Assembly (NCBI GenBank): GCA_002869165.1
Contig: PKTK01000001.1
Location: forward strand, 29,006-93,005
Direction of reading: 5' to 3'
DNA length: 64,000 nt
Origin: Candidatus Parcubacteria bacterium
Lineage (GTDB): Bacteria; Patescibacteriota; Patescibacteriia; Patescibacteriales; UBA12075
Shown here in pieces: positions 1 through 25,400 of this stretch. A program made the translations under genes and the position numbers. Positions within the stretch are counted from its first letter, which is position 1; each line of letters starts with the position of its first letter. The notes beneath the pieces are model-generated. The model was not told where the DNA came from and did not search any database. It saw only the letters and a program-made list of their open reading frames with translations.

Positions 1-2379
1 GACAGAATGAGTACGGCTGATATTTCTACTCTTTCACCAAGTAAGCTTATTAATGCACGACCAGTTATTTCAGTGGTAAAGGAATTTTTCATGTCATCTC
101 AACTTTCACAGTTCATGGACCAGACCAATCCATTAGCGGAACTTGAACACAAAAGAAGGCTTAGTGCTATGGGACCTGGTGGTCTAACTAGAGAAAGAGC
201 TGGTTTTGATGTTCGTGATGTACATTCAACTCACTATGGTAGAATTTGTCCGATTGCTACTCCCGAAGGACCAAACATTGGTCTAGTGGGTCACTTGGCT
301 TCATATTCTCGTTTGAATAAATATGGTTTTCTAGAAGCCCCATTTAGAAGAGCAATTAACAAAGTTTCTAATGATGGTGAAACAGGGATTAATCATATCG
401 CCTCAGAAGATGTAGAGGATGCAAATGGAAAAGTTATTATCAAGGCTGGCGAAAAATTGGACAAAAAGAATTTAAAAAAAGCAGCGGAAAATAAAGAACT
501 TGAATTTATCAAAGTAATACCACTTGTCACAGATGAAATCGTTTACATGGATGCTTTTGAAGAAGAGAAATATATTACTACCTCATCTGTAACTCCGGTA
601 GATGAAAATGGTAGATTCATGATTGATAGATGTGAAGTTAGAAAATACGGTAAGCCTGATGTTGGCACAATAGCTAATATTGATTTTGTTGGTGTAGCAG
701 CCAATCAAATCATTTCTATTGCTACATCTTTGATTCCTTTCATGGAACATGATGATGGTCAACGTGCTTTGATGGGGACAAACATGCAACGTCAAGCGGT
801 ACCGCTTGTAAGAGCTGAGTCTCCAATTGTAGGAACTGGTATTGAAGCAAGAGCTGCCATGGATTCAGGTCATGTTGTTTTGGCAGGAGATGATGGTGAA
901 GTAACCAAGGTAGACGCAAGTTCGATCACTATTAAAACAAAGAACGGTAAAAATTTAACATACGAACTCACAAAATATTTAAGATCAAATGCTTCAACTT
1001 GTATTAATCAAAAACCAACAGTTGATGTAGGTGACAAAGTTGAAAAGGGGCAGGTTATTTCTGATGGTCCTTCTATTGATAATGGTGAACTTGGCCTGGG
1101 TAAAAATGCTTTGGTAGCTTTTATGACTTGGGAAGGATTTAACTATGAGGACGCAATCATTATTTCAGAAAGACTTGTTAGAGATGATGTTTATTCATCT
1201 ATTCACATTGAAGATTATACAATTGATGTTCGTGACACCAAGCTTGGTCCTGAACTTGTAACCAGCGATATTCCAAATATTGGTGAAGAAAAATTAAAAG
1301 ATTTAGACGAAAAAGGTATTATTAGAATTGGAGCAGAGGTTTCCTCAGGTGATATTTTGGTTGGTAAGATTACTCCAAAAGGTGAGACTGAATTGAGCGC
1401 TGAAGAAAAATTACTTCGAGCTATCTTTGGCGAAAAAGCAAAAGATGTTAGAGATTCATCACTATATTTAGAGCACGGTGAATACGGTAAGGTAGTTGAT
1501 GTTAAGATTTTCTCTCGAGAGGATGGTGACAAACTTTCAGCTGGAGTTCTACAATCAATCCAAGTTACGGTTGCTAACCTTAGAAAGATTCAGTCAGGAG
1601 ATAAGATGGCTGGTAGACACGGAAACAAAGGGGTTATTTCTAAAATCGTCCCAGTTGAAGATATGCCATATTTAGAAGACGGTACACCTATCGATATTAT
1701 CCTTTCACCACTTGGTATTATATCTCGTATGAATCTAGGGCAACTTCTAGAGACTCATTTGGGTTTTGCAGCAAAAAAACTTGGCTACAAGGTTGCTACC
1801 CCGGTGCTTAATGGCTTAACCGAGAATCAGATCAAAGAAGAATTAAAGAAAGCTGGGCTTCCTGAAAATGGTAAAGTAACTTTGTTTGATGGAAAAACAG
1901 GCGAGAAGTTTGATAATCCAGTAACAGTAGGATATAAGTACATGCTTAAACTTAACCATATGGTTGATGATAAGATCCACCAAAGATCAATTGGCCCATA
2001 CTCATTAATCACCCAACAACCTTTGGGTGGTAAAGCTCAGTTTGGTGGACAAAGATTTGGAGAGATGGAAGTTTGGGCACTTGAAGCGTATGGAGCTAGC
2101 CATACTCTACAAGAGATATTGACCATTAAGTCAGATGATGTTGCTGGTCGAAGCAAGGCTTATGAATCAATTATTAAAGGTGAGCCAATTAAAAAGCTTA
2201 ATGTTCCAGAATCATTTAATGTGTTAGTTAGAGAGCTAAAAGGTCTTTGTTTGGATGTAGAATTGCTTGGCGGACAAAAAGATATTAAAGAAGATGAAGA
2301 AAAATCAGTTGAAGACAATAAGACAGAAGTGAAAGAGACAGAGGATAAGAAAGACGAAGGAAAGAAAAATGAAGAATAA
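1..2379 (+). CDS. rpoB: DNA-directed RNA polymerase beta subunit, C-terminal ~790 aa (5' end lies outside the window)
   Basis: Frame is open from base 1. Motifs [37 protein letters not shown] and KSDDVAGR are present. Acidic/Lys-rich C-terminal tail. Confidence 0.97.
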
Positions 2380-2531
2380 TTAATTATTTAATAATTTTTA
2401 AAATATCAAATCCTAAGCGCTAAATCCTAAATAAATAAAATTACCAAAATTCAAAAGTTTTAAACATTTAAAAATTTGAATTTTCAAAATTGTTTAGAGT
2501 TTAAATATTAGAGATTGGAAATTAAATAAAT

Positions 2532-3683
2532 ATGTTAAATCCAATAAAAACAACAGACTTTGATGCTATTAGACTCAAACTAGCATCACCTGATGAGATA
2601 AAAGAATGGTCTCATGGAGAAATTTTGCGACCAGAGACAGTTAATTATCGTACTCAAAAACCAGAAAAGGACGGTCTTTTCTGTGAAAAAATATTTGGCC
2701 CATCAAAAGATTGGGAATGTTATTGTGGTAAATATAAAAAAATTAGGTACAAAGGCATTGTATGTGACAAGTGTGGAGTTGAAGTTACTAGATCTATTGT
2801 TAGACGTGAAAGAATGGGGCATATTGAGCTAGTATCACCATGTACTCATATTTGGTTCCTAAGAGGACTTTCAAGTAAGATTGGTCTGATCTTTGGTCTT
2901 TCCATGCAAGCACTTGAAAAGGTTGTGTATTTTGCTAGTTTCATTGTTACAGATGTAAATGAAGAGTTAAGAGAAGCTACTCTAGAACAGATTAAAAATG
3001 AGTTTAAACAAAAGAAAAAACAAATTGAGTCAGAATTTACCAATCAATCAAAAGAGATCAAAAATAAAAAAGGTGCAATGATTAAAGAAGATAAGAGCGA
3101 GAAAGAAGTGGCTGAAGTTATTGAAAAGGAAGTTGAGATACTTGAAGGAGTAAAAGAGGAAAAATTAGCGAATTTGCAAGAAGCTTTTGATCAAGCACAA
3201 AGAGAGCTTAAGGACTTAAAACCTTTACTTATTATTTCAGAAAATGAATACCAAAATCTAAGTTTTAAATATGGACACATCTTCCAAGCAGGAATTGGAG
3301 CGGAAGCTATCAGACATTTACTTGAAAGAATAGATCTTGAAGAATCGATTAATCAAATGGAAGAAGAATTAGATGTAGTTATTGAAACGAAGAAAGAAAA
3401 GATTACTAGAAGACTTAAACTTTTTAAATCTTTGAAGGCAAACAATATCAGGCCTGAGTGGATGGTTCTTTCAACTATTCCTGTTATCCCTCCAGACCTA
3501 AGACCCATGGTAGCTTTGGATGGTGGACGTTTTGCTACTTCTGATCTTAATGATCTATATAGAAGAGTGATTAATAGAAATAATCGTCTAAAACAACTAA
3601 TTGATTTAAATGCTCCAGAGGTTATTAGAAGAAATGAAAAGCGTATGCTTCAAGAAGCAGTAGATGCTTTGATTGATAACTAA
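2532..3683 (+). CDS. rpoC: RNA polymerase beta-prime subunit, N-terminal segment ending at an in-frame TAA
   Basis: Zn-ribbon [23 protein letters not shown] and the conserved [12 protein letters not shown] just before the stop at 3681-3683. Confidence 0.93.
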
Positions 3684-3728
3684 GCAAGACATGGTAAAAC
3701 TGTAATTGCCTCAACAGGTCAAAAAAGA

Positions 3729-6521
3729 ATGCTTAAATCTTTGGCGGATTCCCTAAAAGGTAAACAGGGTCGTTTCCGTCAAAATTTGCTTGGTAAGCGT
3801 ATTGATTATTCAGGTCGTTCAGTTATTGTGGTTAACCCAAAACTTAGCTTAGACCAATGTTGTTTACCTAAGATTATGGCACTTGAACTATTCAAACCGT
3901 TTATCATTTCAAAATTAATTGAACAAGAACATGTACACAATGTTCGATCAGCTTCTAGATTTATTGAAGCAGGCAATGATGTGGTTTGGGATATTTTGGA
4001 AGATATTATTAAAGGAGCCTATGTTATGCTAAATCGTGCTCCTACTCTACATAGATTGGGTATCCAAGCTTTTAAGCCAACTTTGATTGAGGGTAAAGCA
4101 ATCCAGATTCATCCTTTGGTTTGTTCAGCCTTTAACGCTGACTTTGACGGTGACCAGATGGCGGTGCATGTACCTTTGACTAAAGAAGCTGTAAATGAAG
4201 CTGCTAATATAATGCTTTCAAGCAAGAATATTTTGAAACCAGCTACGGGTGATCCAGTTGTAGCTCCTGGTCAGGATATTGTTTGGGGAGCATATTATAT
4301 GACCGATGAGTTGAATAAGGATAAAGATGACAAAGATTTGAAAGTATTTTCATCTACCATGGAGGCAATTTATGCTTATGAGATGAAAAATATAGCTTTA
4401 CAAGATCCAATCATGGCAAAAATTGAAGGCCAAGGTATAATCCGAACTACAGTTGGAAGAATTATTTTTAATGATATTTTACCTGAGAAGTTAAGATACG
4501 TAAACAAAGTTCTTTTGAAGGGTGACTTAAAAAGACTTGTTAGACAATGTTATAGGTATTATTCTCAAGAAGAAACAGTTGAATTCATTGATAATCTAAA
4601 AAAGAGAGCCTTTGCTTATATTACCAAGTCAGGACTTTCTTGGGGTATGGGTGATCTGCCAAAATTTGAAGAAAAAGATAAATTGATTGCTGATACGCAA
4701 AAGATGGTAGAAGAAATTCAAGAGCAATATGAAGATGGTTTGTTAACTGATACAGAAAGATATGCCAAAGTGATTGAGCTTTGGACAAATGTAAAAGAAA
4801 AAGTCACTGATATTTGCAAAAAGGGTCTACCAGTTGATGGACCAGTTTATTCTATGATCGAATCTGGTGCTCGTGGATCATGGGCTCAGCTTACTCAGAT
4901 TTTGGGTATGAAGGGTTTGGTAACCTCTCCAAGCGGTGATATTATCGAGTTGCCAGTAAAAGGAAATTTTAAAAAAGGTTTTGGAGTTCTTGAATACTTC
5001 ATTTCTACTCACGGTGTTCGTAAGGGTTTGTCTGATACAGCTCTTAGAACTGCTAATGCTGGATATTTAACTAGACGTCTAGTTGATGTTTCTCAGGATG
5101 TTATAGTTACTGATGAAGATTGTGGCGATGAGGAAGGCACATTGATTACCAAAAAGGAAGCAGATGAAATTGGTTATTCTATGTTAGATAGAATTTTGGG
5201 TAGATATATGGCCAAAGACTTAAAAAATGTCAAAGGAAAAGTATTAGCAAAAGCAGGAGATCTTATTACCGAGGATATTGCTGATGAAATAAAAGACGAA
5301 GAAATTGAAGAAGCATCTATTAGATCCGTCCTTAGTTGTAAAATTGCTAGAGGTGTCTGTAAAAAATGTTATGGTTGGGATCTTGGATATAATAAACCAG
5401 TTAAGATTGGAACAGCTGTTGGTGTAATTGCTGCTCAATCAATTGGTGAGCCCGGTACCCAGCTAACTATGAGAACTTTCCATACTGGTGGTGTAGCCGG
5501 TGCTGATGATATTACTCAAGGGCTTCCTCGTGTTGAAGAAATTTTTGAAGCCCGTCCGCCAAAGAGAAAAGCTCTTATTGCAGATGTGGCTGGAAAAGTA
5601 AAGATTGAGGTTGCTGAAAGAAATATTGAAGACGAGAAAGGCAAAACTCTCATAGTCAGTCCACAAAGCAAGATTTTGAGCATTGGCTTTAAAGGTGAGT
5701 CAAGTGATAAATATTACTTTTCAGAATTGATAAAAGAGACAAATCTAAAAAATACAGAAAAAGGTAATAAGAAGAAAAAATTAACCAAGAAAGATATCAA
5801 GGTTCAAGTAAAGGATGGTGACAAAGTAAAAGCCAAAGATGTAATTATCAAGATTGGTACAGAAGCAATTGAGGCTACAAAAGGCGGCGAGGTGTCAATA
5901 GATGATAAGGGTGTTAAAGTAAGTTATAAGAAGAATAATGTAAAAGAATTTATTGTTCCTAAGGGTATATCTATTTTAGTACAAGATGGTGAAGAGGTAG
6001 AGAAGGGAGATCAACTCACAGATGGTTCTATGGATTTACAGCAGCTTTTTTCTCTTAGAGGTAAACTTGAGACTCAGAAATACATTATCAAAGAAATTCA
6101 AACAGTGTATTCATCACAAGGACAACCCTTGAATGACAAACACGTGGAAGTTGTCGCTAGACAAATGTTTTCTAGATTTTTGGTGATTAATCCAGGCGAT
6201 ACTCAGGTTCTACCTGGCGAAATTGTTGAGAATTCAGTTATCGAAAGAGCTAATTCTGAACTTGATGCTAAAGGCAAGAAAGTTGAAGCTGACCGATTGT
6301 TGCTTGGTATTACTAAGGCATCGCTTACAACTGACTCATTCCTTTCTGCTGCATCTTTTCAAGAAACAGCTAGAGTATTGATTGAAGCAGCGGTTAGCGG
6401 AAAAGTAGATTACCTAGAAGGATTAAAAGAAAATGTTATAATTGGTCGTTTGATTCCTTCTGGAACTGGTTACCAGGGAAAACAAGAGAGAGCAGATTAT
6501 TCTGTGGACATCGAAGAATAA
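3729..6521 (+). CDS. rpoC: RNA polymerase beta-prime subunit, C-terminal segment (same frame as 2532..3683; homology resumes at 3684)
   Basis: KGKQGRFRQNLLGKRIDYSGRSVIVV, catalytic NADFDGDQMAVH, and trigger-loop/bridge regions. Codons 3684-3728 read ARHGKTVIASTGQKR with no stop. Confidence 0.93.
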   Translation: MLKSLADSLKGKQGRFRQNLLGKRIDYSGRSVIVVNPKLSLDQCCLPKIMALELFKPFIISKLIEQEHVHNVRSASRFIEAGNDVVWDILEDIIKGAYVMLNRAPTLHRLGIQAFKPTLIEGKAIQIHPLVCSAFNADFDGDQMAVHVPLTKEAVNEAANIMLSSKNILKPATGDPVVAPGQDIVWGAYYMTDELNKDKDDKDLKVFSSTMEAIYAYEMKNIALQDPIMAKIEGQGIIRTTVGRIIFNDILPEKLRYVNKVLLKGDLKRLVRQCYRYYSQEETVEFIDNLKKRAFAYITKSGLSWGMGDLPKFEEKDKLIADTQKMVEEIQEQYEDGLLTDTERYAKVIELWTNVKEKVTDICKKGLPVDGPVYSMIESGARGSWAQLTQILGMKGLVTSPSGDIIELPVKGNFKKGFGVLEYFISTHGVRKGLSDTALRTANAGYLTRRLVDVSQDVIVTDEDCGDEEGTLITKKEADEIGYSMLDRILGRYMAKDLKNVKGKVLAKAGDLITEDIADEIKDEEIEEASIRSVLSCKIARGVCKKCYGWDLGYNKPVKIGTAVGVIAAQSIGEPGTQLTMRTFHTGGVAGADDITQGLPRVEEIFEARPPKRKALIADVAGKVKIEVAERNIEDEKGKTLIVSPQSKILSIGFKGESSDKYYFSELIKETNLKNTEKGNKKKKLTKKDIKVQVKDGDKVKAKDVIIKIGTEAIEATKGGEVSIDDKGVKVSYKKNNVKEFIVPKGISILVQDGEEVEKGDQLTDGSMDLQQLFSLRGKLETQKYIIKEIQTVYSSQGQPLNDKHVEVVARQMFSRFLVINPGDTQVLPGEIVENSVIERANSELDAKGKKVEADRLLLGITKASLTTDSFLSAASFQETARVLIEAAVSGKVDYLEGLKENVIIGRLIPSGTGYQGKQERADYSVDIEE

Positions 6522-6542
6522 GACTATTTAAATAATAAAAAA

Positions 6543-6573
6543 ACAGAGCGCAGCAAAGCGCTCTGTTTTTTTA
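6543..6573 (+). terminator. Intrinsic terminator after rpoC
   Basis: acagagcgc / gcgctctgt stem followed by a T7 run. Confidence 0.85.
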
Positions 6574-6643
6574 TTATAAAGATTTCATTTACCTTTAATT
6601 TTTATTTAGTATTATATGAATATACTAAAATAAAATAAAAAGT

Positions 6644-6829
6644 ATGGAAGGAGAAAAAACAAAAGAGATACTTAAATATTCTTGGCGATGTGTAAAGTGC
6701 AACAACCATTTTGCAAATATTGAAAATATAAACGGTCAGATAATAGTAGAAAAGAAGTGTAGTAAATGCAAAAGCATAAACAAATTAATGTTACTTAACA
6801 ATGAAATAAGAATAAAATATGACACATGA
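6644..6829 (+). CDS. Small CxxC...CxxC zinc-ribbon protein, hypothetical
   Basis: 61-aa ORF with CVKC and CSKC pairs. No recognisable family. Confidence 0.35.
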   Translation: MEGEKTKEILKYSWRCVKCNNHFANIENINGQIIVEKKCSKCKSINKLMLLNNEIRIKYDT

Positions 6830-7119
6830 ATTACTGTAATTCGTATCGGGCATTAAAGTTTTTATACAAACATCCACGCCCTTAAATCAAAGTTATATTT
6901 GGCTTGTTTTAAGGGTGTTTTTTATTTGAAAATTAAATATTTATTAAAACAAAAAAATTATGCGAACAATTATAAAGGTCGATTTAAATAATTGTTACTT
7001 AATTAATATTGAAAATTAGTTGATCTTTTAAAAATAGAAATAAAAATAAAAAAAGTAATTATTAGAATTAATAAATTTGTTAAAAATATATAAATGTATT
7101 TAACAAAAAAAATAAACGT

Positions 7120-7851
7120 ATGAAAAAAATATTAACAATAGCAACCTTAGTTTTTCTATTTAGCTTGACAGTTACCCCTGCTTTAGCTGATGGAAATGAC
7201 ACGGTTTTAAACGAAAATTCAGCTGAAGTTATGAACGGTTCAATGGTAATGACCAATACTGGAGATAATTGGGCTGATGGCTCATATGGTGGTGAAGGAG
7301 GAAATGGAGGGGACATCAGAAATGGTAGTAGATCAAGAGATTACCATGGAGAAGTTCAATTATTGGGACCTGGACCAATGTTTTTTGATGGTGAAGATGG
7401 AGATGTAGAGGATTCAACCACAGGAAATGGTGGCGCTGGTGGAGATGCAGCTGAAGGAGGCACTGTGATCACTGGTGATGCTCATGCTGATTTGAGTGTA
7501 AGAAACGTAGTGAATAGTAATGATACTGAGATAAATCGATGTGCATGTGATGAAGACAATGATGATGGCAATACTAGAGTAAGAAATATTAACTTAGCCT
7601 TTTTAGGCAGCGGAGAATTTATAGCAGCTAATACTGGCTCAAATGATGCTGAAGGCTCTTATGGCGGTGAAGGTGGAAATGCCGGTGATATTTCAAATAG
7701 AGGTGAAGGAGATGTTGAGGACTCAACAACAGGCTCAGGTGCTAGAGGTGGAGCTGGCGCGGCTGGTGGTCTAGTTCAAAGTGGAGCTTCAACTGCTACA
7801 AGCGCTTTAGTAGATAGAATAAACGAAAACGTAACAAGAATAATGAGGTAA
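7120..7851 (+). CDS. Secreted Gly/Asp-rich repeat protein (paralogue of 7904..9049)
   Basis: Signal peptide ending in ALA-DG. Two repeats of NTGxNxAxGSYGGEGGNxGD...GDVEDSTTGxGGxGG, an RCAC motif, and a RINENVTRIMR C-terminus. Confidence 0.8.
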   Translation: MKKILTIATLVFLFSLTVTPALADGNDTVLNENSAEVMNGSMVMTNTGDNWADGSYGGEGGNGGDIRNGSRSRDYHGEVQLLGPGPMFFDGEDGDVEDSTTGNGGAGGDAAEGGTVITGDAHADLSVRNVVNSNDTEINRCACDEDNDDGNTRVRNINLAFLGSGEFIAANTGSNDAEGSYGGEGGNAGDISNRGEGDVEDSTTGSGARGGAGAAGGLVQSGASTATSALVDRINENVTRIMR

Positions 7852-7854
7852 TAT

Positions 7855-7892
7855 TAGAAGGGTCTATTCTTTTAAAAGAATAGACCCTTCTA
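7855..7892. terminator. Perfect 19-bp-arm palindrome between the two Gly-rich genes (hairpin, possible terminator)
   Basis: tagaagggtctattctttt / aaaagaatagacccttcta. No clear T-run follows. Confidence 0.45.
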
Positions 7893-7903
7893 AATAAAAA
7901 CAT

Positions 7904-9049
7904 ATGAAAAAAATAATTAAAATTGTATCTATCTTTAGCATGACTGCTATTGCTTTAGCTCTTCCATTTTATGCTTTTGCCGCTACTACTGATTGGGCTA
8001 GTTCTGTAACTAGTTTTAGTCAGGGAATGCAAAAGGGCGGAGCAGCTGTTGATGCTGGAAGATCAGACCCTAATGAAGCATTGGGTGCAAACGATGGTGT
8101 CTTTGTTTCACTTGGTTATGGAGGAGAATTAGTTCTCGAATTTCCCACCAAGGGAATGGGTAGTCTCATGATTGCAAGTTATGAGGTAACTGGTGGAACA
8201 TACCCAGAAGAAACAGCTGATGTTTATGTTAGTTCTGATGGTATTAGTTGGGACTTTGTAGGATCCGCTAGTAACGAAATGGGCGAAGATGATGGCATTA
8301 CTGAGATTGATGTAGTAGATGATATATGTATCAAATGGGTAAAATTAGTTGATACAACTGATGAAGCTCTACATAACGATTCTTCTGATGCTTATGATGT
8401 TGATGCTGTAAGTCTTACTTATGATGAAGAGTGTATTGAAGAAGAGAGAGGCAGTGATGGTAATGACACAGTGACAAATAACAATAGCGCTATGGTTAGC
8501 AACAATATTGTAATTGGAGCTAATACTGGTGGAAATTGGGCAGGAGGTTCTTATGGCGGTGAAGGCGGTGATGGTGGTGATGTTGTTAATGGTGATGATG
8601 GTGATGTAGAAGATTCAAACACTGGCAGAGGTGGAGCAGGTGGAGACGCTGCTGAAGGCGGCACCATAATTAGCGGTGATATTAGCATGGATTTAGAAGT
8701 AACTAATCGAGTTAATTATAATCTAACTGAAATTGATCGATGTGCTTGTAGCGGTGAAGGTGATGGCGATGTTCGAGTCAGGAACATTAATAGTGCATTG
8801 GTGGCCAATTCTACTTTAGCTATGGCTAATACGGGTCTAAACGATGCCGAAGGTTCTTATGGCGGTGAAGGTGGAGACGGTGGTGATATCATAAATAATG
8901 AAGATGGTGATGTAGAAGATTCAAACACTGGCAATGGTGGAAATGCTGGCGCCGGTGGAGCTGGAGGTTTTGTACAAACTGGTAACTCTGAAGTTAGAAC
9001 AAGCCTTGTAAATAGAATCAATGAAAATATCACTCGAATTATGAGATAG
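7904..9049 (+). CDS. Secreted protein: N-terminal beta-sandwich-like domain plus Gly/Asp-rich repeats
   Basis: Signal peptide. Same GSYGGEGGDGGD / GDVEDSNTG repeats, RCAC motif and RINENITRIMR C-terminus as 7120..7851. Confidence 0.8.
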   Translation: MKKIIKIVSIFSMTAIALALPFYAFAATTDWASSVTSFSQGMQKGGAAVDAGRSDPNEALGANDGVFVSLGYGGELVLEFPTKGMGSLMIASYEVTGGTYPEETADVYVSSDGISWDFVGSASNEMGEDDGITEIDVVDDICIKWVKLVDTTDEALHNDSSDAYDVDAVSLTYDEECIEEERGSDGNDTVTNNNSAMVSNNIVIGANTGGNWAGGSYGGEGGDGGDVVNGDDGDVEDSNTGRGGAGGDAAEGGTIISGDISMDLEVTNRVNYNLTEIDRCACSGEGDGDVRVRNINSALVANSTLAMANTGLNDAEGSYGGEGGDGGDIINNEDGDVEDSNTGNGGNAGAGGAGGFVQTGNSEVRTSLVNRINENITRIMR

Positions 9050-9133
9050 ATAGTCAGTTAAAAAGGTTTTTTAATAAACCTTTTTCTGGCCAGGGCTCGG
9101 AATAAAAGTTGCGGGCCTTGGTTAGTAAAAAAT

Positions 9134-9811
9134 ATGGATAAAATAATCATTATAACAATTTTAAATTTATTAATTTTACCAAATATTGCTTTGGCTGATA
9201 TTGTGGTGGAGAATTCGAACTCTAGCACAGTAACAAATAGCCTTGAGATTGTTGTTGATTCTGGTTCTAATATTAGCCAAAATAATTTTGAAGGAGAAAC
9301 TTCTGTAGATTTGAATATTGAAACTATTGTAAATGGTGAAAAGTTGATAGATAAAAAAATAATAGAAAGTAGTGAGGATGGGATTGATCTAAGCTATAAA
9401 AGCAGTTTAGAGATAAATCATGACAGTGAACCTCAAATAGAAGAAGAATTAATTATTCAGCCAACAGAAGATAACCAAGATCTAGATCAAAAGCCATCTT
9501 TAGAAGATGAGCCTAAGGTTTCGAGTGACACCGCTTCTCAAGTAAGTAGTAAAGAAGTTGTTCCTTTAATAATAAAAGAGAACGTATCAGAAGAAACGGT
9601 CGTAACAGAGACTGCTAATGAAGAAGAAGTGAATGTTGAAACAGCGGAGCCTCATGTTTGCGATTTTACTTGCAGTAGCGCAGAGAATGAAAACAAAGCA
9701 GAAGAAACACAAGCAGAGCCCAAAACCGAAACAAACAATTTTAATATACTAGTAACAATAGCTAATTATTTTGTGAATATTTTTTCAAAGTTTGTTAAAA
9801 TCTTCACCTAA
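9134..9811 (+). CDS. Secreted acidic protein, hypothetical
   Basis: Signal peptide. The N-terminal NSNSSTVTNSLEIVVDSGSN motif is shared with neighbouring genes. Glu-rich low-complexity middle region. Confidence 0.6.
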   Translation: MDKIIIITILNLLILPNIALADIVVENSNSSTVTNSLEIVVDSGSNISQNNFEGETSVDLNIETIVNGEKLIDKKIIESSEDGIDLSYKSSLEINHDSEPQIEEELIIQPTEDNQDLDQKPSLEDEPKVSSDTASQVSSKEVVPLIIKENVSEETVVTETANEEEVNVETAEPHVCDFTCSSAENENKAEETQAEPKTETNNFNILVTIANYFVNIFSKFVKIFT

Positions 9812-9826
9812 TAAAAAAATAAATAT

Positions 9827-12799
9827 ATGTGTTTCCAAAAAATTAAAATATTATTTTACCTCATGGCTCTTTTTGTTTATTCTTTTGCTTATCCGGGCTT
9901 AGTAATTGCCCAGGAAGTCGAAGAACCACAAGCAGAAATAACTGTAGTAGAAACCGGTGATATTGAAGCTAATGTAGACAATGTGAATAATGTAAATGAG
10001 AACGACACTGAAGAAACATCAGGCACAGGAGGTGATCAAAATTTGGGAACAATGAATCAAAACGACTCAGATATTGAAAATAATACATCAGGTGATCTGG
10101 AAAGTGGAGAGAATGAAATTAATAATTCTGATGGCGCTAGTTTGATTGATACAGGAGATGTACAAGCAGATGTATTAACTGAAAATCAGACTAATGCAAA
10201 TTTTGTTGATTCAAGTTGTGGTGATGATTGCCCAGCTACTAGCAGTGATGAAGTACTTAAAGAGGGCACTACTTCGTCTTCTGAGAATGCCATCGATCAA
10301 GCTTCTACAACTGTAAATAATTTAAATAATGCTATCACATCCAATGATGTGGATTTGTCATTGGGTAGTGGCGATAATTCAATAAACGGAGGAGAAGATG
10401 CAACGATTGTAACTGGTGATGTGGGGATAATCAATATAATCATTAATTATATAAATACTAATTTTTTTGGAACAGGCAAGGAATATTTTATAAATGTTTT
10501 TAATTCAGTAGCAGGATCAATTGACTTGAGTGCATTTGGAATTGGTGAAGAGGAAGGTGATGAATGTAGTGGTGAAAACTGTACTTTGAATGTAAACAAT
10601 GATAACGATGCTACTATAGATAATAACATCGTAATTGATGTAAAGACTGGTGCTAATATGATTTCCTCAACCAGTGGAGAAGCCTATATTGAAACTGGCG
10701 ATATAAATGTGGTAAATGATGTTCTAAATATTGCCAATCTAAATGTAACTGGTGATGATTGGTTTTTTGCAGTGGTTAATATTTTTGGTGAACTTGAAGG
10801 CGATATTATTTTGCCAGCAGTTTCTGAGGATGAAGAAGTAGCAAGCACTGAAAATGTTTTGGAGGAAGCTGTAAAAAATGCCAGCACAACAGACAAACAA
10901 TTCGTAGTAGCAAATGAGAATGCAGCCAATGTTTTAAATAATATTGTTATAAACACTGAAACTGGTTCAAATACTCTAGCTAGTGCAACAGAAAGTGTGA
11001 TAGTGACCGGAGATACAGAAATAAATAATAATCTATTCAATCTAATAAATTACAATATTACAGGTAATTCCTGGAAGTTTGCGCGGGTAAATGTCTTTGG
11101 TAATTGGGAGGGCTTCATACAGGGATTACCTGATACTTATTCTTATATTGAAGATGAAAATGGAATTACGATCTATAATAGTTTTTTGGATGACTTTAGC
11201 GTCAGTTCAAAAGACTATGTTCGTTTTATAGTAGGAAATAACAATGAAGCTACGACCACAAATAATATTGAAATTAATGCAACAACAGGGGAGAATTCTA
11301 TTTTGGATAATATGGGTATATCAGCAATTGTAAGTGGAGGCATTAGCATTGCCAATAATTTACTTAATTTTATCAATTCTAATTTTTCTGGTGAGAACTG
11401 GGAATTTTCCATGGTAAATGTTTTTGGAGATTGGCAGGGTAATCTTTCTTTTGGACAACCTGATTTATGGATAGTTGAATCGATTGATAAAACAACTGCA
11501 GTAGCGGGAGATTATGTGACTTATACTTTTTTGTTTGGAAACAAAGGAGATGCTACTGCCCACGATGTGGAATTGAATGATTTTATAAATGACGCTTTTA
11601 TAAATATTATTGGTTCTCAAACTGAGGATTATGAAAATGGCGTCTTGAGTTTGCCACTCGGTGATATTCCGCCAAATACTCAAGGGTCGATGTCATATAC
11701 TGTGCAGGTAAAGCCAAGTTTATCTTCGGCAGAGGAGACAGTTGTCAATGAAGTTTATATAAACGGAATTGATAACGAAAGAGATTACACTAACAATAGA
11801 AGTGGTGTGCAATTCTTGGCAACCTCACTTAGTGCTAGTGAGGCAGGCGCCAGTAGCGCTAGCAGCGGAGGATCGGGCAATAGAGCAGTATTTCATCCAA
11901 ATTTTTCAATAATTAAAAGCAATAATTCAAGTAGTGAAGTAAAACCAGGTGATACAGTTGATTTTAAGATAGTTATTCAAAATATCGGTAATGAAGATGC
12001 CTTTGATGTGTTAGTTTTGGATGTTTTGAAACGAAAGGATACTGAAGAAGAAATTAGTAGTAAGGTTTGGGATTTAAATACTGTTCAAGATAGAGAGGAA
12101 ATTGTAATTGAATATTCCCTTGAGATCAAAGAAGATCTAAGTAGTGGAGTTTATGTAAATGAAGTTATGGTAGAAGGTTGGGATGATGCTTCAAAAATAT
12201 GGATTACAGCGGTAGCTTCATCAAAGATAAAAGTTGATAATGATAGTAGTGAGCCAGTGGTCTTGGGAGTCGAGGGTAAAGCTGACCTAAGCGCTAGAAA
12301 AATTTGGCCAAATGATTCATTTCGTCCAGGGGACGAGTTCGATTATAGCGTGATAGTTAAGAATAATGGAAATATTGATGCTGTTGATGTTCAATTAACT
12401 GAGATTTTACCTGATGATATTAAATTTGTAGATTTTGGCTCAAGTGAGCAGACTTTGTATCTTGGGAATTTAGGTCCAGGCATAGAAACATCCGTAGTCT
12501 TAAAAGCCAAGGTTTTAGATTATGCAAATACTGGAGAATATGAATCGGATAGCTTTATTAGATCATATAATGACAAAGAAATAAAAATTGTCGAGAGTCT
12601 AATTATTGAAGAGATTTTGGCAGATGTAGAAGTTGCAGAAATCACCGAATATTCCAGTGATGAATTATTGAGCCCAACGGGCTTTTCTATTAAAGAGTTT
12701 GTGCTATTGATAAGTTTGTTTATAGCTTTGTATTTCTTCTCTTATAAATTAAAACAAAAGTACTTACTCAGAAAAAATGAATTTATTATAAGGCCTTGA
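9827..12799 (+). CDS. 990-aa cell-surface protein with beta-helix-like repeats, DUF11-type repeats and a C-terminal sortase-type sorting signal
   Basis: Signal peptide. Repeats NNIVIxxxTGxN...TGDxxxxNxxxNxxNxNxTGxxWxFxxVNxFGxWxG. DUF11-like GDxVxYxxxxxNxGxxxAxDV seen three times. C-terminal LSPTG, then a hydrophobic helix, then a KLKQKYLLRK tail. Confidence 0.8.
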   Translation: MCFQKIKILFYLMALFVYSFAYPGLVIAQEVEEPQAEITVVETGDIEANVDNVNNVNENDTEETSGTGGDQNLGTMNQNDSDIENNTSGDLESGENEINNSDGASLIDTGDVQADVLTENQTNANFVDSSCGDDCPATSSDEVLKEGTTSSSENAIDQASTTVNNLNNAITSNDVDLSLGSGDNSINGGEDATIVTGDVGIINIIINYINTNFFGTGKEYFINVFNSVAGSIDLSAFGIGEEEGDECSGENCTLNVNNDNDATIDNNIVIDVKTGANMISSTSGEAYIETGDINVVNDVLNIANLNVTGDDWFFAVVNIFGELEGDIILPAVSEDEEVASTENVLEEAVKNASTTDKQFVVANENAANVLNNIVINTETGSNTLASATESVIVTGDTEINNNLFNLINYNITGNSWKFARVNVFGNWEGFIQGLPDTYSYIEDENGITIYNSFLDDFSVSSKDYVRFIVGNNNEATTTNNIEINATTGENSILDNMGISAIVSGGISIANNLLNFINSNFSGENWEFSMVNVFGDWQGNLSFGQPDLWIVESIDKTTAVAGDYVTYTFLFGNKGDATAHDVELNDFINDAFINIIGSQTEDYENGVLSLPLGDIPPNTQGSMSYTVQVKPSLSSAEETVVNEVYINGIDNERDYTNNRSGVQFLATSLSASEAGASSASSGGSGNRAVFHPNFSIIKSNNSSSEVKPGDTVDFKIVIQNIGNEDAFDVLVLDVLKRKDTEEEISSKVWDLNTVQDREEIVIEYSLEIKEDLSSGVYVNEVMVEGWDDASKIWITAVASSKIKVDNDSSEPVVLGVEGKADLSARKIWPNDSFRPGDEFDYSVIVKNNGNIDAVDVQLTEILPDDIKFVDFGSSEQTLYLGNLGPGIETSVVLKAKVLDYANTGEYESDSFIRSYNDKEIKIVESLIIEEILADVEVAEITEYSSDELLSPTGFSIKEFVLLISLFIALYFFSYKLKQKYLLRKNEFIIRP

Positions 12800-12825
12800 C
12801 ACCCTATGGGGGTGTATGATATATT
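12796..12825 (+). promoter_or_regulatory. Promoter with embedded GC palindrome (operator candidate) upstream of the peroxiredoxin gene
   Basis: TTGACAcccTATGGgggtgtaTGaTATATT. The ACACCC/GGGTGT inverted repeat lies between the -35 and the extended -10. Confidence 0.6.
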
Positions 12826-12867
12826 GTTATTAAATTAATATTTATTAACAATTAGATTTATAAATTT

Positions 12868-13524
12868 ATGGAAAATGAAACAAGACAAGGTTTACCACTT
12901 TTAGGAGAAGCAATTCCCGAAATGGAAGTGGTAACAACTCATGGCGTAAAAAATATCCCAGGAGATTATAAGGGGAAATGGTTGGTTCTATTTTCTCATC
13001 CAGCTGATTTTACTCCAGTTTGTACAACAGAGTTCGTGGCCTTTAACAGGCGTTATGATGAATTTCAAAAATTAAACACAGAGTTATTGGGCTTATCAAT
13101 TGACCAAGTATTTTCACACATTAAATGGACTCAGTGGATAAAAGACAATCTAGATGAAGAAATAAAGTTTCCAATAATAGCCGATGATATGGGAAATGTT
13201 GCCAAACAATTAGGAATGGTACATCCTGGCAAGGGGACCAATACGGTTAGAGCTGTATTTATCATCGATGCTAAGGGATTACTTAGAACAGTGATGTATT
13301 ATCCTCAAGAAATTGGAAGAAATATGGATGAAATCCTAAGAGCAATCAAAGCCTTGCAATTATCTGATGAAAAAGGAGTAGCGGTCCCAGCTGGTTGGCC
13401 AAACAACGAACTTATTAGTGACGAAGTAATTATACCGCCAGCCAAGACCGAAGAAGATGCTGAAAAAAGAAAAGGGCAAGATGGCTGTTATGATTGGTGG
13501 TTTTGTCACAAAAAAGCCGATTAG
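12868..13524 (+). CDS. Peroxiredoxin (1-Cys/Prx6-like)
   Basis: [14 protein letters not shown] active-site motif and typical length (218 aa). Confidence 0.9.
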
Positions 13525-13570
13525 TTTTTTAGAATTAAGAATTATGAATTAAGATTTAAGAATAATAAAA

Positions 13571-13597
13571 GAAGAGCACAATGCTCTTCTTTTTTTA
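13571..13597 (+). terminator. Intrinsic terminator after the peroxiredoxin gene
   Basis: gaagagc / gctcttc stem plus a T-run. Confidence 0.8.
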
Positions 13598-13610
13598 TAT
13601 TTCGTCTTTT

Positions 13611-13737
13611 TGTCATTCCCGCTCCTCCTCTGTCATTCCCGCCTGTCCCGTCTTCTTGCGGGGGCGAGCGAAGCGAGAGAAGGGAATCTCGTGAGTACTA
13701 GAAAAACATGAGATTTCTGCTTTCGCAGGAATGACAG
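13611..13737. repeat. GC-rich palindromic (MITE/REP-like) element, tgtcattcc(c/t)gc family
   Basis: tgtcattcccgc occurs twice in forward orientation, and gcaggaatgaca in inverted orientation at 13725-13736. Related copies at 52996-53025 and 60542-60619. Confidence 0.6.
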
Positions 13738-13795
13738 AAATGTATTTAATAATAGTGAAAAATAGTCAAATGTGCAGACTAAAACAACATAGTTC

Positions 13796-13825
13796 TTGAC
13801 ACCCCCAGGGGGTGTATGATAAAAT
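13796..13825 (+). promoter_or_regulatory. Second copy of the promoter/operator upstream of the membrane transporter
   Basis: TTGACAcccccAgggggtgtaTGaTAAAAT, with perfect 8-bp arms ACACCCCC/GGGGGTGT. Confidence 0.6.
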
Positions 13826-13894
13826 GGTTGTTAGTTAATAAATAATATTAATATATATTTAAATATATATTTAAATATATATTTTTTAAAAAAA

Positions 13895-15061
13895 ATGAGA
13901 AAAGAAATGCTGAAAAAATTCAGCCCACTTATTTGGCTATCTTCTCTGGGAGCAGGAGGTATCTCTGTGATATTCTTTGCTTTTTTAAATTACACCATTC
14001 CTCATGGAAAGGGACTTATTAATATCAGTCAGATTCACTCTGCTTATAGCGGTTTAGCCCTGGCTGGTTTTATGTTTTTAGAGGCCTTGATGGTTGTTTT
14101 TATTTTGCTTCACTTTGCTTTAACTTTGCAGTTAATCCCAAAGCTATTAGCTTGGATAAAAACTCCTTATTATAAAGAATTACTTGACAATCCATTAGCA
14201 AATGCAGCGATTTTAGCTCCATTTATTTCTATAACAATGAGTATGAATGTTTTGATTGGTCCTATTAGATATTTATTTGTTCCTTTAGCTGAAAATTTGC
14301 AGTCCATGATGTTGCCAGGATTTTTGGTCTGGTCTTTGATTTGGATTGCTTTAATGCGTATGGAAATTAAACTACTAAAGATATCTTTTGAAAAAGGTTT
14401 TGACGTTGACAAGGTTAATTTTGGTTGGTTGCTTCACCCCTTTGCTTTAGGAATGCTTTCTGTGACTGGTGCTGGCATTGCAGCAATGGCAAGTAATATT
14501 GTTTTAGCCAATACAGCCTTTTTCATGTTGCTTGTATCTGGTTCAATGGGTTTATTTTTATTGTTAGTTAAATCTGTTGCAATATTCAAAAGCCACTTTG
14601 CTAGCGATGGTTTGCCTGCCAAGCAGTTTTTACCATCACTTTTAATAATTGTGCCCAACATAACATTGTATGCAATTACTTTTTTTAGAGTAGGGCATTT
14701 TCTTGAACACCACCATGGTGCACAGCTTGGCTCTTATTTTTTTGTAGTGATGACTTTGGCTTTTGCCTTTGAGACCTGGTATTTGATGTTTGGTTTAGCT
14801 TTGTTAAAGGATTATTTTACAACTCATATGAAAACAGAATATCATGTTTCACAGTGGGGACTAGTTTGCCCATTTGTGGCATACGCTGTTCTTGGATCAT
14901 TTGTGTATAATTTATTTTTGCCTTATACTTTATTTTTCTGGTTTATTTTAGCTGTAACTGCTTTTACAATTTCTCTATTTTTCTTTATTTTGTTCAAGCA
15001 ATATTTATGTCTAAAAAGTGCAAAGAGCTCAGCAAATGAACCAAAGTTAATGTGCGCATAG
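13895..15061 (+). CDS. Polytopic membrane transporter, possibly TDT/TehA-SLAC1-like
   Basis: About 10 predicted TM helices. N-terminal LGAGGISV-type motif. Family assignment is tentative. Confidence 0.4.
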   Translation: MRKEMLKKFSPLIWLSSLGAGGISVIFFAFLNYTIPHGKGLINISQIHSAYSGLALAGFMFLEALMVVFILLHFALTLQLIPKLLAWIKTPYYKELLDNPLANAAILAPFISITMSMNVLIGPIRYLFVPLAENLQSMMLPGFLVWSLIWIALMRMEIKLLKISFEKGFDVDKVNFGWLLHPFALGMLSVTGAGIAAMASNIVLANTAFFMLLVSGSMGLFLLLVKSVAIFKSHFASDGLPAKQFLPSLLIIVPNITLYAITFFRVGHFLEHHHGAQLGSYFFVVMTLAFAFETWYLMFGLALLKDYFTTHMKTEYHVSQWGLVCPFVAYAVLGSFVYNLFLPYTLFFWFILAVTAFTISLFFFILFKQYLCLKSAKSSANEPKLMCA

Positions 15062-15151
15062 AGTTTTAATGCCAATTTTTAAAAAGAATATATCACAGTT
15101 ATATATTCTTTTTTTATATGTTTAGACTCTTAATTATGATATAATTTATTT

Positions 15152-15739
15152 ATGATAGATAAATATTTCACAAGTAATAAAGAATGGAGTGATATTACCA
15201 TTAATAATGGTGGGCTTAAAGATAAAAAAATCAAAAACCTTAAATTTTATAATTCAAAGTTAAGCGCTTTGTCTTTGAATGGCTTGGAGTTGATAGATTT
15301 TGAATTTCTTGGATCAAAAATTGATAAATTGGATTTTTCAAACACTTCTTTGGAAAAAGCCTATTTGAAAAATTCTCTTTTTGAGAATTCCAAGGCCACT
15401 GGTTTGAATTTGGCAGAATCAGAAATGAAAGGTTTAGAAATTAATAATTGCAAAATTGATTTAGCTAATTTTAGATATGCAAATTTTGATGATGTAGTTT
15501 TTGATAATTGTATATTGATTGGGAGTGATTTTCAGGCTGCTAATCTTAAAAATGTAGTTTTTAGAAGTTGCAATTTGAGTGATGTGGATTTTTCTCAGGC
15601 AATAATGAAAAAAGTAGATATTAGGCATTCTCTTATTTTGGGTATGAAAATAGCCCCAGAGAATTTTAGGGAATTAACCGTTGATCCAAATCAAGCAGGT
15701 ATTTTAGCATCTGTGATGGGGTTAAATGTAAAAAATTAA
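15152..15739 (+). CDS. Pentapeptide-repeat protein
   Basis: Runs of A(D/N)Lxx pentapeptides, e.g. ANLKNVVFRSCNLSDVDFSQA. Confidence 0.8.
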   Translation: MIDKYFTSNKEWSDITINNGGLKDKKIKNLKFYNSKLSALSLNGLELIDFEFLGSKIDKLDFSNTSLEKAYLKNSLFENSKATGLNLAESEMKGLEINNCKIDLANFRYANFDDVVFDNCILIGSDFQAANLKNVVFRSCNLSDVDFSQAIMKKVDIRHSLILGMKIAPENFRELTVDPNQAGILASVMGLNVKN

Positions 15740-15886
15740 ATAATATTAGCAAAATATTTATTATATAGTATTTTTTTTATTATGCTTGACTTCTAGTGTA
15801 AAATATATTACTATATCTATGTAAATATTATTAAATATAAGGCGATTTTTAACAGACAAAAGGTCTGTTTTTCGTTATTACATTGT

Positions 15887-16042
15887 ATGTCACAAGATAA
15901 CATGATAAAATTAGAGTGTACAGAATGTAAAAGAGTGAACTATTTTTCAAGAAAGAATAAGAAAACCTTGAAAGAAAGACTTAACATGAAGAAACACTGT
16001 AAATTCTGTAATAAACACACTGATCATAAAGAGACTAAATAA
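15887..16042 (+). CDS. rpmG: 50S ribosomal protein L33 (below the ORF-track size cutoff)
   Basis: [51 protein letters not shown]. Two CxxC pairs and the L33 signature. The start could instead be at 15902. Confidence 0.85.
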
Positions 16043-16083
16043 TTCTTTAGTTTTTGTTGTCTCTTTAGAGATAGCAATATATT

Positions 16084-16470
16084 ATGGCCAATAATAATAA
16101 AACAAGATACATATTCCTTATTTTAGTTTCTTGTTTTTTAATTTCAGGATGTGTGAGTTTAAAAGATATAGATTCCCAAATTGGTAAGGTGATTGAATAT
16201 ACCGAGCCAGAAGGGGTGGTGACTAAAGACAAACAAGACGGCTCTAGTGAAGTTATTGAATTAGTTGATCCTCAATCTTTGAGCAAAGAGGCCAAAGAAA
16301 AAATTGATGTTTGGTTAAATGATAATGGCTATAATAGATACGGAGACCCTGTAGATACTTTTTATACAGGTGGAACCCCATTGTTTGATGAAGCAAGTGG
16401 AGAGGCAATTGAAAGGTTTGAGTACATTATTAAGAAACATCCTGACATAATGGATAAAATAAATAAATAA
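16084..16470 (+). CDS. Lipoprotein, hypothetical
   Basis: Lipobox LISGC after a hydrophobic N-terminus. Confidence 0.6.
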   Translation: MANNNKTRYIFLILVSCFLISGCVSLKDIDSQIGKVIEYTEPEGVVTKDKQDGSSEVIELVDPQSLSKEAKEKIDVWLNDNGYNRYGDPVDTFYTGGTPLFDEASGEAIERFEYIIKKHPDIMDKINK

Positions 16471-16471
16471 T

Positions 16472-17554
16472 ATGGCTAATAAAAATATACTTTCTAGAGT
16501 TTTTTTACTAGGAGTCTTGGCTCTTGTCTTGTTTGCATGTTTTTCTATTTTTAAATCTTTTATTGGAGAATTTTTGATAGCAACTATTTTGGTAACAACT
16601 TTTTATGGTTTTTATGAAAAGGTTGTGAAATTATTTAGAGGCAAGAGAATGTTAGCTTCATTGGCGGTTTGTCTATTGATCATTATTTTGATTATTGGTC
16701 CTCTTGCTAATATGGTTGCTTATTCAGCTCAGAGGTTGGTCAATGCCTATAGTAAGACGGAGATTTATTTCAATCATGATAATTTGGAAATGATGGTAGA
16801 GAAAATGGTTGAGAGTCCGATTTTAGCAAATGTATTGTTTTTTATAGACAATAAAAATGAAATGAAAATTTATCTTCTTGATAAGATTGATATTTTGAGA
16901 GATTGGTTACTTAGTGGAGCTATGAATGATGTGTTGATTGCTAATTCAACAAGCATTTTAGCAGGAACAGCGAATACTTTAGCTTCGGTTGTGATAGTGA
17001 TATTTTGTATGTTCTTTTTCTTTATTGATGGAGAAAAAATGCTTGATAAAATAAAATATTGGACACCTTTACCAAATAAATACGACAAAGCATTATTTCA
17101 AAAATTCAGAGATGTGAGCTATTCAACATTGTTTGCTACTTTTGTTACAGGTATTGCTCAGGGTGTAATTGGTGCTATTGGATTTTTAATAGTTGGTTTT
17201 CCAATATTTTTCGCTTCCATCGCCATGGCTTTTGCTTCCATTATTCCATATGTAGGTACAGCTTTGGTCTGGGTTCCAGTTTCCATATTTTTACTTGTTA
17301 CTGGTCAGATTTGGCAAGGAGTATTTATGCTTATTTGGGGAACGGTGGTAATTGGAAATTCTGATAATATCTTACGAGCATATCTCATAAAAGATAAAGC
17401 TGAAGTTCATCCATTATTCGTTTTTTTCTCAATTATCGGCGGTTTGAGCTTGTTCGGTTTTTGGGGAATTGTCTATGGACCACTCATAATTTCTTTAGCA
17501 GTAACAGTAATGCATATTTACGAACTTGAGTATAAAGATGTACTAGAGAAGTAA
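16472..17554 (+). CDS. AI-2E family (PerM/UPF0118) transporter
   Basis: Eight-TM pattern, with the conserved IPYVGTALVWVP and DNILRAYL regions. Confidence 0.8.
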   Translation: MANKNILSRVFLLGVLALVLFACFSIFKSFIGEFLIATILVTTFYGFYEKVVKLFRGKRMLASLAVCLLIIILIIGPLANMVAYSAQRLVNAYSKTEIYFNHDNLEMMVEKMVESPILANVLFFIDNKNEMKIYLLDKIDILRDWLLSGAMNDVLIANSTSILAGTANTLASVVIVIFCMFFFFIDGEKMLDKIKYWTPLPNKYDKALFQKFRDVSYSTLFATFVTGIAQGVIGAIGFLIVGFPIFFASIAMAFASIIPYVGTALVWVPVSIFLLVTGQIWQGVFMLIWGTVVIGNSDNILRAYLIKDKAEVHPLFVFFSIIGGLSLFGFWGIVYGPLIISLAVTVMHIYELEYKDVLEK

Positions 17555-17620
17555 GCTTTTATTATTCATCGGAAGCAGGAAAATAGAAAGAGTGTATTAA
17601 ATAATCAAATATTTAAATAA

Positions 17621-17692
17621 GCGGGCGTGGTGTCAACGGTAGCACAGGGGTCTCCAAAACCTCTTGTCTGGGTTCGAATCCTAGCGCCCGTG
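17621..17692 (+). tRNA. trnW: tRNA-Trp (anticodon CCA)
   Basis: Cloverleaf folded by hand: acceptor GCGGGCG/CGCCCGT, anticodon stem GGGGT/ACCTC, loop CTCCAAA, T-arm CTGGG-TTCGAAT-CCTAG, discriminator G. CCA is not encoded. Confidence 0.85.
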
Positions 17693-17862
17693 CAAAATAA
17701 ATAAACATCCTAATTTAAGGATGTTTATTTATTTTATTCGAGTCGTTAGTGTGAGAATCCATAAGTGGATAGAGTAAATGGTATTTTAAGAAAAGTAGCT
17801 TGGAAGAAAAAGCATTAATTATAAATAAAAACGTATTCGATTGGGGAAACACCCGATAGGTA

Positions 17863-17886
17863 TTCGAATCCTAGCGCCCGTGCAAA
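17863..17886 (+). repeat. Exact 24-nt direct repeat of the tRNA-Trp 3' end (att-type repeat)
   Basis: ttcgaatcctagcgcccgtgcaaa is identical to 17673-17696. It is followed by its own terminator-like hairpin. Confidence 0.85.
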
Positions 17887-17945
17887 TCATAAAATATCGC
17901 TATAATTAGCGATATTTTTAGTTACTATCACCATTGTTCCTAAGT

Positions 17946-17974
17946 TTGACAAGTCGATCGTTTTATGATAAATT
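17946..17974 (+). promoter_or_regulatory. Promoter of the peptide/rSAM cassette
   Basis: TTGACA, 17-nt spacer, then TGaTAAATT. Confidence 0.5.
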
Positions 17975-18130
17975 AAAAAATTATAAATAGATTTTATAAT
18001 ACTAGGTCTTTGAAATTTTAAGTGAAATTAGTGGAAGATAAATTTCGATATTTATCTTTTGTTGTAAAAAACCGTAGAAGGATTATGATGTTTTTCTTCT
18101 ACAAAATACTAATTAAAGGAGGAAGTGGAA

Positions 18131-18223
18131 ATGAAAAAGTTTCGCATTATTAATCGTGGTAATCGTTGCGTTGTTATTCTGACAAAAGAATCGCAGGGCA
18201 CAATGTATTACAGAGGACAGTAA
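18131..18223 (+). CDS. 30-aa candidate RiPP precursor peptide (not in the ORF track)
   Basis: MKKFRIINRGNRCVVILTKESQGTMYYRGQ. Strong RBS aaaggagg 8 nt upstream. An attenuator hairpin follows, then the rSAM gene. Confidence 0.5.
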   Translation: MKKFRIINRGNRCVVILTKESQGTMYYRGQ

Positions 18224-18235
18224 ACCAATAACCGG

Positions 18236-18267
18236 ACGGGGAGAGAATTTTTCTTTCCCCGTTTTTT
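18236..18267 (+). terminator. Hairpin plus T-run between the peptide and the rSAM gene (partial terminator/attenuator)
   Basis: acggggagag / ctttccccgt stem followed by T6. Confidence 0.6.
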
Positions 18268-18285
18268 AAAAGGGGGCACACAATT

Positions 18286-19719: not shown

Positions 19720-19746
19720 AAATATATCAAAAATTAAATCAAGTAT

Positions 19747-19784
19747 CCGCTTAGATTGTTTACACAGTCTAAGCGGTTTTTTTT
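19747..19784. terminator. Bidirectional terminator between the convergent rSAM and methyltransferase genes
   Basis: ccgcttaga / tctaagcgg stem followed by T8. Confidence 0.75.
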
Positions 19785-20461: not shown

Positions 20462-20802
20462 ATTTATTGATGATTTAAATAATTTATCTATACTAGTTGA
20501 TTATAATATATATTATAATCATTAATGTCTATAATTACAAATAAATATGCATATCAGAAAAATTTTGAACGGAATATTGTGTTTTTTGAAATTTTATATA
20601 TTATTATTAACTTTTTTCAATAATGTTGGGATATAAATATCTTTTGAATTAATAATTTCAGTTCTAACACTGTCCACGATCCCGTGCAAATGAAACAACT
20701 GGCTTTTCGCCAGTTTTTTTATTTGGATGAGTGGTAGGTAGAGAAGATACTTTGATTATACATTTCAAAACTATAAAATAATAATATATATTAAAATCAA
20801 TA

Positions 20803-22518: not shown

Positions 22519-22640
22519 ATATTTATTATAAAAATTAGTAAAATAAAGGGAGCAGTAACCTGCTCGAACCCAACATCCTCACGAAGAGTTGTTGAAGCGG
22601 TACTGCTCCCATATATCAAAACGACAATGAGTCGCTATGA

Positions 22641-24323: not shown

Positions 24324-24452
24324 TTTCGTAAAAATAAAAATGCCATCGTGGGGACAATGACGTTCGGTAAACGTCACCAGATATAAATATCTGACACGAA
24401 AGCATTTTTATTTACCGAATGTTTTTTGTACTTTATTTTTCTTCAAGCAAAC

Positions 24453-24517
24453 AAAAAAGCCCGAAGAAAAAACACTTAGGCAGTATGATTTTGCCTAATT
24501 CTACTTTTTCTTCGGGC
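24453..24517 (-). terminator. Long hairpin terminator downstream of 24671..25306
   Basis: gcccgaagaaaaa / tttttcttcgggc arms with an inner hairpin, and a T-run on the minus strand. Confidence 0.7.
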
Positions 24518-25306: not shown

Positions 25307-25400
25307 AGTGCATGGAATATTTTTGTTATATATATCTTAACACAAGTCCCTATTGTTAGATTAAAAAACAAGGTTCGGAAATCTGAAAAACATTGAAAAT

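Follow-up and report, generated by a model that had tools for sequence, protein, structure and literature searches.

A private in-frame stop codon in rpoC of a Parcubacteria metagenome-assembled genome, a probable consensus error of the G:C>T:A class

Within rpoC, the gene encoding the beta-prime subunit of RNA polymerase, a Parcubacteria contig carries an in-frame TAA codon, which raises the question of whether the stop belongs to the organism or only to its assembled sequence. In the 64,000-bp stretch of DNA analysed here (hereafter, the window), the TAA is read at positions 3681-3683, and the ORFs on either side of it, 2532..3683 (383 aa) and 3729..6521 (930 aa), lie in the same frame, with the translation of 2532..6521 giving a single beta-prime sequence with one internal stop. 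The identity of the gene was examined at several levels. The translation contains NADFDGDQMAVH and, within it, the catalytic NADFDGD motif; the full set of beta-prime domains (PF04997, PF00623, PF04983, PF05000, and PF04998) was found, in order, on near-identical intact proteins; beta-prime chains in the PDB match the translation with E about 1e-112; and, among database proteins, the best matches come from Parcubacteria/Patescibacteria MAGs and are again beta-prime subunits. The 930-aa ORF is identical to NCBI PLX27631.1 (P0121), from a “Candidatus Parcubacteria bacterium” MAG with a contig of 584,723 bp, and therefore the stop is present in the deposited public record.

The original prediction for this locus was that an in-frame stop splits rpoC in its rudder region, in place of a Ser or Gly codon and with neither a frameshift nor a new start codon or ribosome-binding site before position 3729. 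This description of the site proved accurate. In a comparison with solved structures, the interrupted residue aligns with G310 of E. coli beta-prime, the G of DNGRRGR, a position at which the rudder begins, far ahead of the catalytic motif. The 15 codons from the stop to the ATG at 3729 carry on the conserved beta-prime sequence, and this ATG is the codon for a conserved internal Met, that of QKRMLKSL, which is present in every relative read; no GGAGG-like motif precedes the ATG. Four explanations had been offered for the stop, namely a consensus or assembly error, read-through or suppression, a genuinely split beta-prime, and a non-viable variant captured in the assembly, and these are weighed below.

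The organism uses the standard bacterial code, with TAA as its main terminator. Among the 49 ORFs of at least 150 aa in the window (G+C 34%), TAG ends 12 and TGA 8, with TAA ending the remaining 29, and the only RNA gene in the window is a tRNA-Trp with anticodon CCA, with no other tRNA. An alternative genetic code was therefore rejected, as all three stops end long ORFs and the tRNA-Trp has the ordinary anticodon just named. A frameshift or an intein- or intron-like insertion was likewise rejected, given the gap-free alignment to intact alleles described below. The same counts bear on whether this particular TAA is decoded, through programmed read-through, a suppressor tRNA, or codon reassignment. 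The frame does stay open past the stop, as decoding would have it, but the codon is the one that terminates most of the long ORFs, with TAG and TGA also serving as stops, the tRNA-Trp is the only tRNA in the window, and the stop is conserved neither in the same strain nor in relatives. In addition, a G follows the TAA, and in E. coli termination at UAAG is efficient. With TAA the commonest terminator and the stop private to one assembly, the earlier suggestion of read-through or suppression finds no support, and we give it next to no credence.

The most direct evidence comes from other assemblies of the same strain. Two of them span the site, JGI 3300007102 (contig Ga0102541_1201516) and ENA ERZ794999 (NODE_58, coverage 24), and their DNA is 99.9-100% identical to the window, with window positions 1..16521 aligning to both contigs without a gap. 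At base 3682 the window has A, where JGI and ENA both have C, and the difference between them is thus TCA>TAA, or, read on the minus strand, G>T in the context 5'-TGA-3'. A sense codon, and specifically a Ser codon, is therefore found at 3681-3683 at the level of independent assemblies, in agreement with the anticipated Ser or Gly. Both sibling assemblies encode an intact beta-prime of 1329 aa (P0001 in JGI, P0123 in ENA), and both proteins read ...ALIDNSARHGK..., with Ser at the position of the stop in the window; from 3684 to 3860 the DNA is the same as in these intact alleles. The joined translation of the window is 99.6-99.8% identical to P0001 and P0123, with five residue differences from P0001, and the 90% cluster of P0001 includes both the 1329-aa ENA protein and the 930-aa P0121. 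Exact DNA pattern scans of the site in which the variable base was given as N returned no match in the genome_contigs and metagenome_contigs collections, and neither did exact look-ups in the contig index of the 383-aa ORF, the 930-aa ORF, and the ORF at 60626.

Comparison with the closest rpoC genes, which the original prediction had proposed as a check, points the same way. Ser follows ...EAVDALxDN in 100 of the 101 close relatives with this motif, the exception having Ala. Across the 75 GTDB species-representative genomes with the motif, the codon is a sense codon in every case (Ser in 39, Gly in 25, Asn in 10, and Ala in 1), and none of the 75 has a stop there. The protein-based scan of GTDB representatives recovered other species only, at a best-segment identity of no more than 75%. 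The best 120 database matches are all full length, at about 1300-1350 aa, except for those truncated by a contig end.

These comparisons bear on the possibility that beta-prime is genuinely split, with a 383-aa N-terminal part and a 930-aa C-terminal part starting at ATG 3729 forming an active enzyme minus 15 rudder residues. Natural split beta-prime subunits do exist, and the cyanobacterial gamma subunit is among our PDB matches; moreover, E. coli RNA polymerase that has been artificially split, or from which the rudder has been deleted, assembles in vitro. In cyanobacterial and plastid rpoC1/rpoC2 (gamma and beta-prime) and in archaeal A'/A'', two polypeptides follow in the same order, as would hold here. 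However, the natural splits are kept across whole lineages, lie after NADFDGD, and give each part its own start, with a cyanobacterial gamma subunit of about 624 aa, whereas the present break precedes NADFDGD, at the equivalent of E. coli G310, occurs in a single assembly, and would cost 15 conserved residues. The split is not conserved even within the strain, with TCA in two same-strain assemblies and a sense codon in all relatives, and the surrounding DNA is that of the intact alleles, so that no start site or ribosome-binding site has evolved. The same class of error also breaks three other genes in the window. A genuinely split beta-prime thus fails on conservation, on position, and on the lack of an evolved start, and we regard it as barely conceivable.

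In our expanded comparison of the window with same-strain sequences, further contigs were included from Logan SRR5894289 and SRR5894287 and from ENA ERZ794998, together with more JGI and ENA contig parts, such that positions 1..56499 (56.5 kb) were covered. Over the 16.5 kb aligned among the window, JGI, and ENA, there are 17 differences, all of them G>T or C>A, of which 12 are private to the window, five to JGI, and none to ENA. Over the whole of 1..56499, the window-specific differences number 35 (19 G>T, 15 C>A, and one G>C), and they include no transition and no indel, apart from one gap at the extreme end of one alignment. Their polarity was set by at least two other assemblies for 28 of the 35 and against a Logan contig only for the other seven. 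The density of G:C>T:A changes is about 0.6 per kb, which corresponds to 1.8 per 1000 G:C pairs.

The window-specific changes bear no mark of selection. The 28 G:C>T:A changes in coding sequence comprise four nonsense, three synonymous, and 21 missense changes, and random G:C>T:A hits in the same ORFs would be expected to yield 3.5, 2.8, and 21.7, respectively (chi-square p = 0.95), which shows that selection has not acted on them, not even at invariant positions such as Gly444 of beta-prime. In a living population, by contrast, nonsense and missense changes would be underrepresented among real polymorphisms, most of all in rpoC. The sequence context of the changes is also far from random: a 3' purine lies beside 31 of the 34 changed guanines, compared with 54% of all G sites (p = 3e-6). 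The commonest context of a changed guanine is TGA, and because this is the complement of TCA, the change TCA>TAA recurs.

The window is not alone in carrying such changes. Over about 44 kb, JGI shows 11 differences of its own, every one G:C>T:A and none in common with the window, and not one transition occurs among the 46 differences of the window and JGI taken together. By comparison, no private difference was found over 37 kb of ENA ERZ794999 or in those parts of Logan SRR5894289 where a third assembly lets polarity be judged. It is worth noting that two contigs of ENA ERZ794998 (L004 and L008, coverage about 3) carry five private differences of mixed kinds (G>T, T>A, A>G, G>C, and C>A), four of which lie about 100 bp or less from a contig end; errors of this pattern are ordinary at low coverage, and they contrast with the single-class spectrum of the window.

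Four of the window-private changes fall in rpoC (3682, 3861, 5732, and 5939), and four of the 35 create premature stops, each in a different gene and three of them by TCA>TAA (Table 1). The radical-SAM/SPASM gene appears in the window as two ORFs, 18286..18921 (211 aa) and 19042..19719 (225 aa), and also carries G335C and E387D from the same error class; it is intact in a Logan SRR5894289 contig (L003, 1909..3342), the sole assembly that sets the polarity there. The change at 49785 lies in codon 25 of the window ORF 49712..50656, a gene that is called as 49733..50656 in the other assemblies. JGI shows a parallel case in the neighboring rpoB gene, in which a JGI-private TCA>TAA on Ga0102541_1201516 (L001, 6840-6842), upstream of the start of the window, splits the product into 148 and 933 aa, whereas rpoB of ENA ERZ794999 is intact at 1150 aa. 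Thus, two essential RNA polymerase genes, rpoC in the window and rpoB in JGI, appear split in different assemblies, and both are intact in the third.

Table 1. Coordinates in the window of rpoC, of private changes and the genes they alter, and of neighboring features.
Feature	Position	Strand	Observation
rpoB, 3' part	7..2379	+	Intact in the window
rpoC (RNA polymerase beta-prime)	2532..6521	+	One gene, 1329 codons after error correction
Premature TAA in rpoC	3681..3683	+	Base 3682 is A here, C (TCA, Ser384) in other assemblies
Change in rpoC	3861	+	G>T, GGT>TGT, Gly444Cys; Gly in 121/122 relatives
Change in rpoC	5732	+	C>A, Ile, synonymous; third assembly (Logan SRR5894289) agrees
Change in rpoC	5939	+	G>T, Lys1136Asn; third assembly (Logan SRR5894289) agrees
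Example window-specific sites	3861, 9655, 11808, 28544, 43575, 52510		
Radical-SAM/SPASM gene, 477 aa	18286..19719	+	Stop at 18919..18921, TCA>TAA at 18920
Large serine recombinase	20803..22518	minus	Pfam on sibling contigs
KAP NTPase	27448..30111		Pfam on sibling contigs
Mrr-type nuclease	30656..31405		Pfam on sibling contigs
TIR_2-domain protein	48850..49728		Pfam on sibling contigs
Stop in 307-aa gene	49784..49786	+	TCA>TAA at 49785; JGI and ENA both C
Stop in HTH/SocA_Panacea-domain gene	51792..51794	+	GAG>TAG truncation; gene ends at 51875 in other assemblies

Several other features of the window were noted. Gene clusters that resemble mobile elements or defence systems lie at about 19.7-31.5 kb and 45-55 kb, as judged from precomputed Pfam annotation of sibling contigs, and the HTH/SocA_Panacea gene and a MazE-like antitoxin belong to the same clusters; it is possible that they form an integrated island in a small CPR genome. 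Two direct repeats of 91 bp, 87% identical, lie at 8545..8635 and 8851..8941 inside ORF 7904..9049 (381 aa, without a Pfam hit), which suggests an internally repeated protein domain. At 58675..60495, the ORFs 58691..59611, 59571..60020, and 59947..60495, together with the minus-strand ORF 58675..59370, overlap in different frames, and this region may be another disrupted gene.

Of the explanations offered for the stop, a consensus or assembly error is strongly supported, as the stop is private to one assembly and is one of 35 unselected changes, 34 of them G:C>T:A. We consider it probable, at roughly 0.85, that the TAA is a C>A error in the consensus caused by 8-oxoguanine (8-oxoG) and not the codon of the organism, the real codon being TCA (Ser384). 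The observations are those expected of 8-oxoG: changes almost exclusively of the G:C>T:A class (34/35 in the window and 11/11 in JGI), variants that the assemblies do not share, and no imprint of selection. We infer that guanines in the template would have been oxidised to 8-oxoG during extraction, heating, or shearing, or in DNA that was already damaged, and that 8-oxoG would then have paired with A in a copying step. If few template molecules were available per site, whether through low input, jackpots in amplification, or thin local coverage, the wrongly copied base could become the majority call and so enter the consensus. One-electron oxidation of DNA falls preferentially on a G that is the 5' base of a GG or GA step, and the 3'-purine preference of the changed guanines fits this. 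The context reported for shearing artefacts, CCG>CAG, differs from the NGA/NGG preference here.

Precedents for such errors are available, and one of them also sets a limit. C>A/G>T artefacts have been traced to DNA oxidation during acoustic shearing (Costello et al., 2013; PMC3616734); in those deep human data their allele fractions were low, and at such fractions these classical artefacts normally would not reach a consensus. Arbeithuber et al. (2016; PMC5144678) showed that templates containing 8-oxoG are amplified with good efficiency, yielding G>T and, less often, G>C changes, that heat incubation raises G>T, and that after single-template “jackpot” amplification a lesion can no longer be told from a true variant. 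The presence of the errors in the consensus implies few independent templates per site; this condition is an assumption of our explanation, and it sits oddly with a contig of 584 kb. Overall, the changes in the window resemble known 8-oxoG artefacts in being almost all G:C>T:A, on both strands, with minor G>C, private, and unselected, but they differ in lying in the consensus of a MAG, at the density given above, and in their G-then-purine context. A literature search on the run, sample, and protein accessions returned no relevant paper.

A technical error of another kind, from base calling, polishing, or the assembler and not from oxidised guanine, would also leave the stop private to one assembly. 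However, none of the common platform or polishing errors known to us gives G:C>T:A only, on both strands, without indels, and with a preference for a 3' purine. The lone G>C in the window, moreover, fits the minor product of 8-oxoG chemistry (Arbeithuber et al., 2016; PMC5144678). Such an error is therefore an unlikely source of the stop.

The non-viable variant of the original prediction would correspond to genuine changes that arose in vivo, in a strain whose 8-oxoG repair (MutY/MutM type) is defective; the MAG would then represent a clonal lineage of that strain, or its dead or relic DNA, and the accumulated G:C>T:A changes would include a lethal or near-lethal nonsense mutation in rpoC. 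Loss of MutY or MutM in bacteria gives the same G:C>T:A spectrum, and changes that stand at the consensus level in a long contig would be natural in such a lineage. Mutators of the GO system (MutM/MutY/MutT) share with the present data the origin of G:C>T:A in unrepaired 8-oxoG, but a living mutator would show purifying selection and shared ancestry, whereas here the changes are in random-hit proportions and the sets do not overlap. Selection is wholly absent: four nonsense changes, including the one in rpoC, fall in 56 kb, a rate that would put about 40 on the 585-kb contig. In addition, JGI carries changes of this class independently, in a set without overlap that has its own nonsense change in rpoB; with nothing shared and no transition, the pattern is star-like, as for independent artefacts; and the best-covered assembly has no private changes in the 37 kb compared. 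We therefore consider a mutator origin quite improbable. A Parcubacteria sub-lineage that lives without 8-oxoG repair, and that survives the nonsense mutation in rpoC through low-level read-through or two beta-prime fragments, is highly improbable.

The consequences extend beyond rpoC. Consensus errors of the G:C>T:A class are present in the deposited Parcubacteria MAG and, less markedly, in the JGI assembly, which is a warning about data quality. If the rate in the window holds over the 584,723-bp contig, roughly 350 bases would be wrong and about 40 premature stops false. Split genes, pseudogene counts, calls of missing functions, and amino-acid variants taken from the record would accordingly be inflated. 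Such errors are easy to overlook, as the contigs remain long and gap-free, but a simple means of detection is to ask whether all differences from sibling assemblies fall in one transversion class. In the organism itself, rpoC is intact and unremarkable, and the stop forms no part of its biology.
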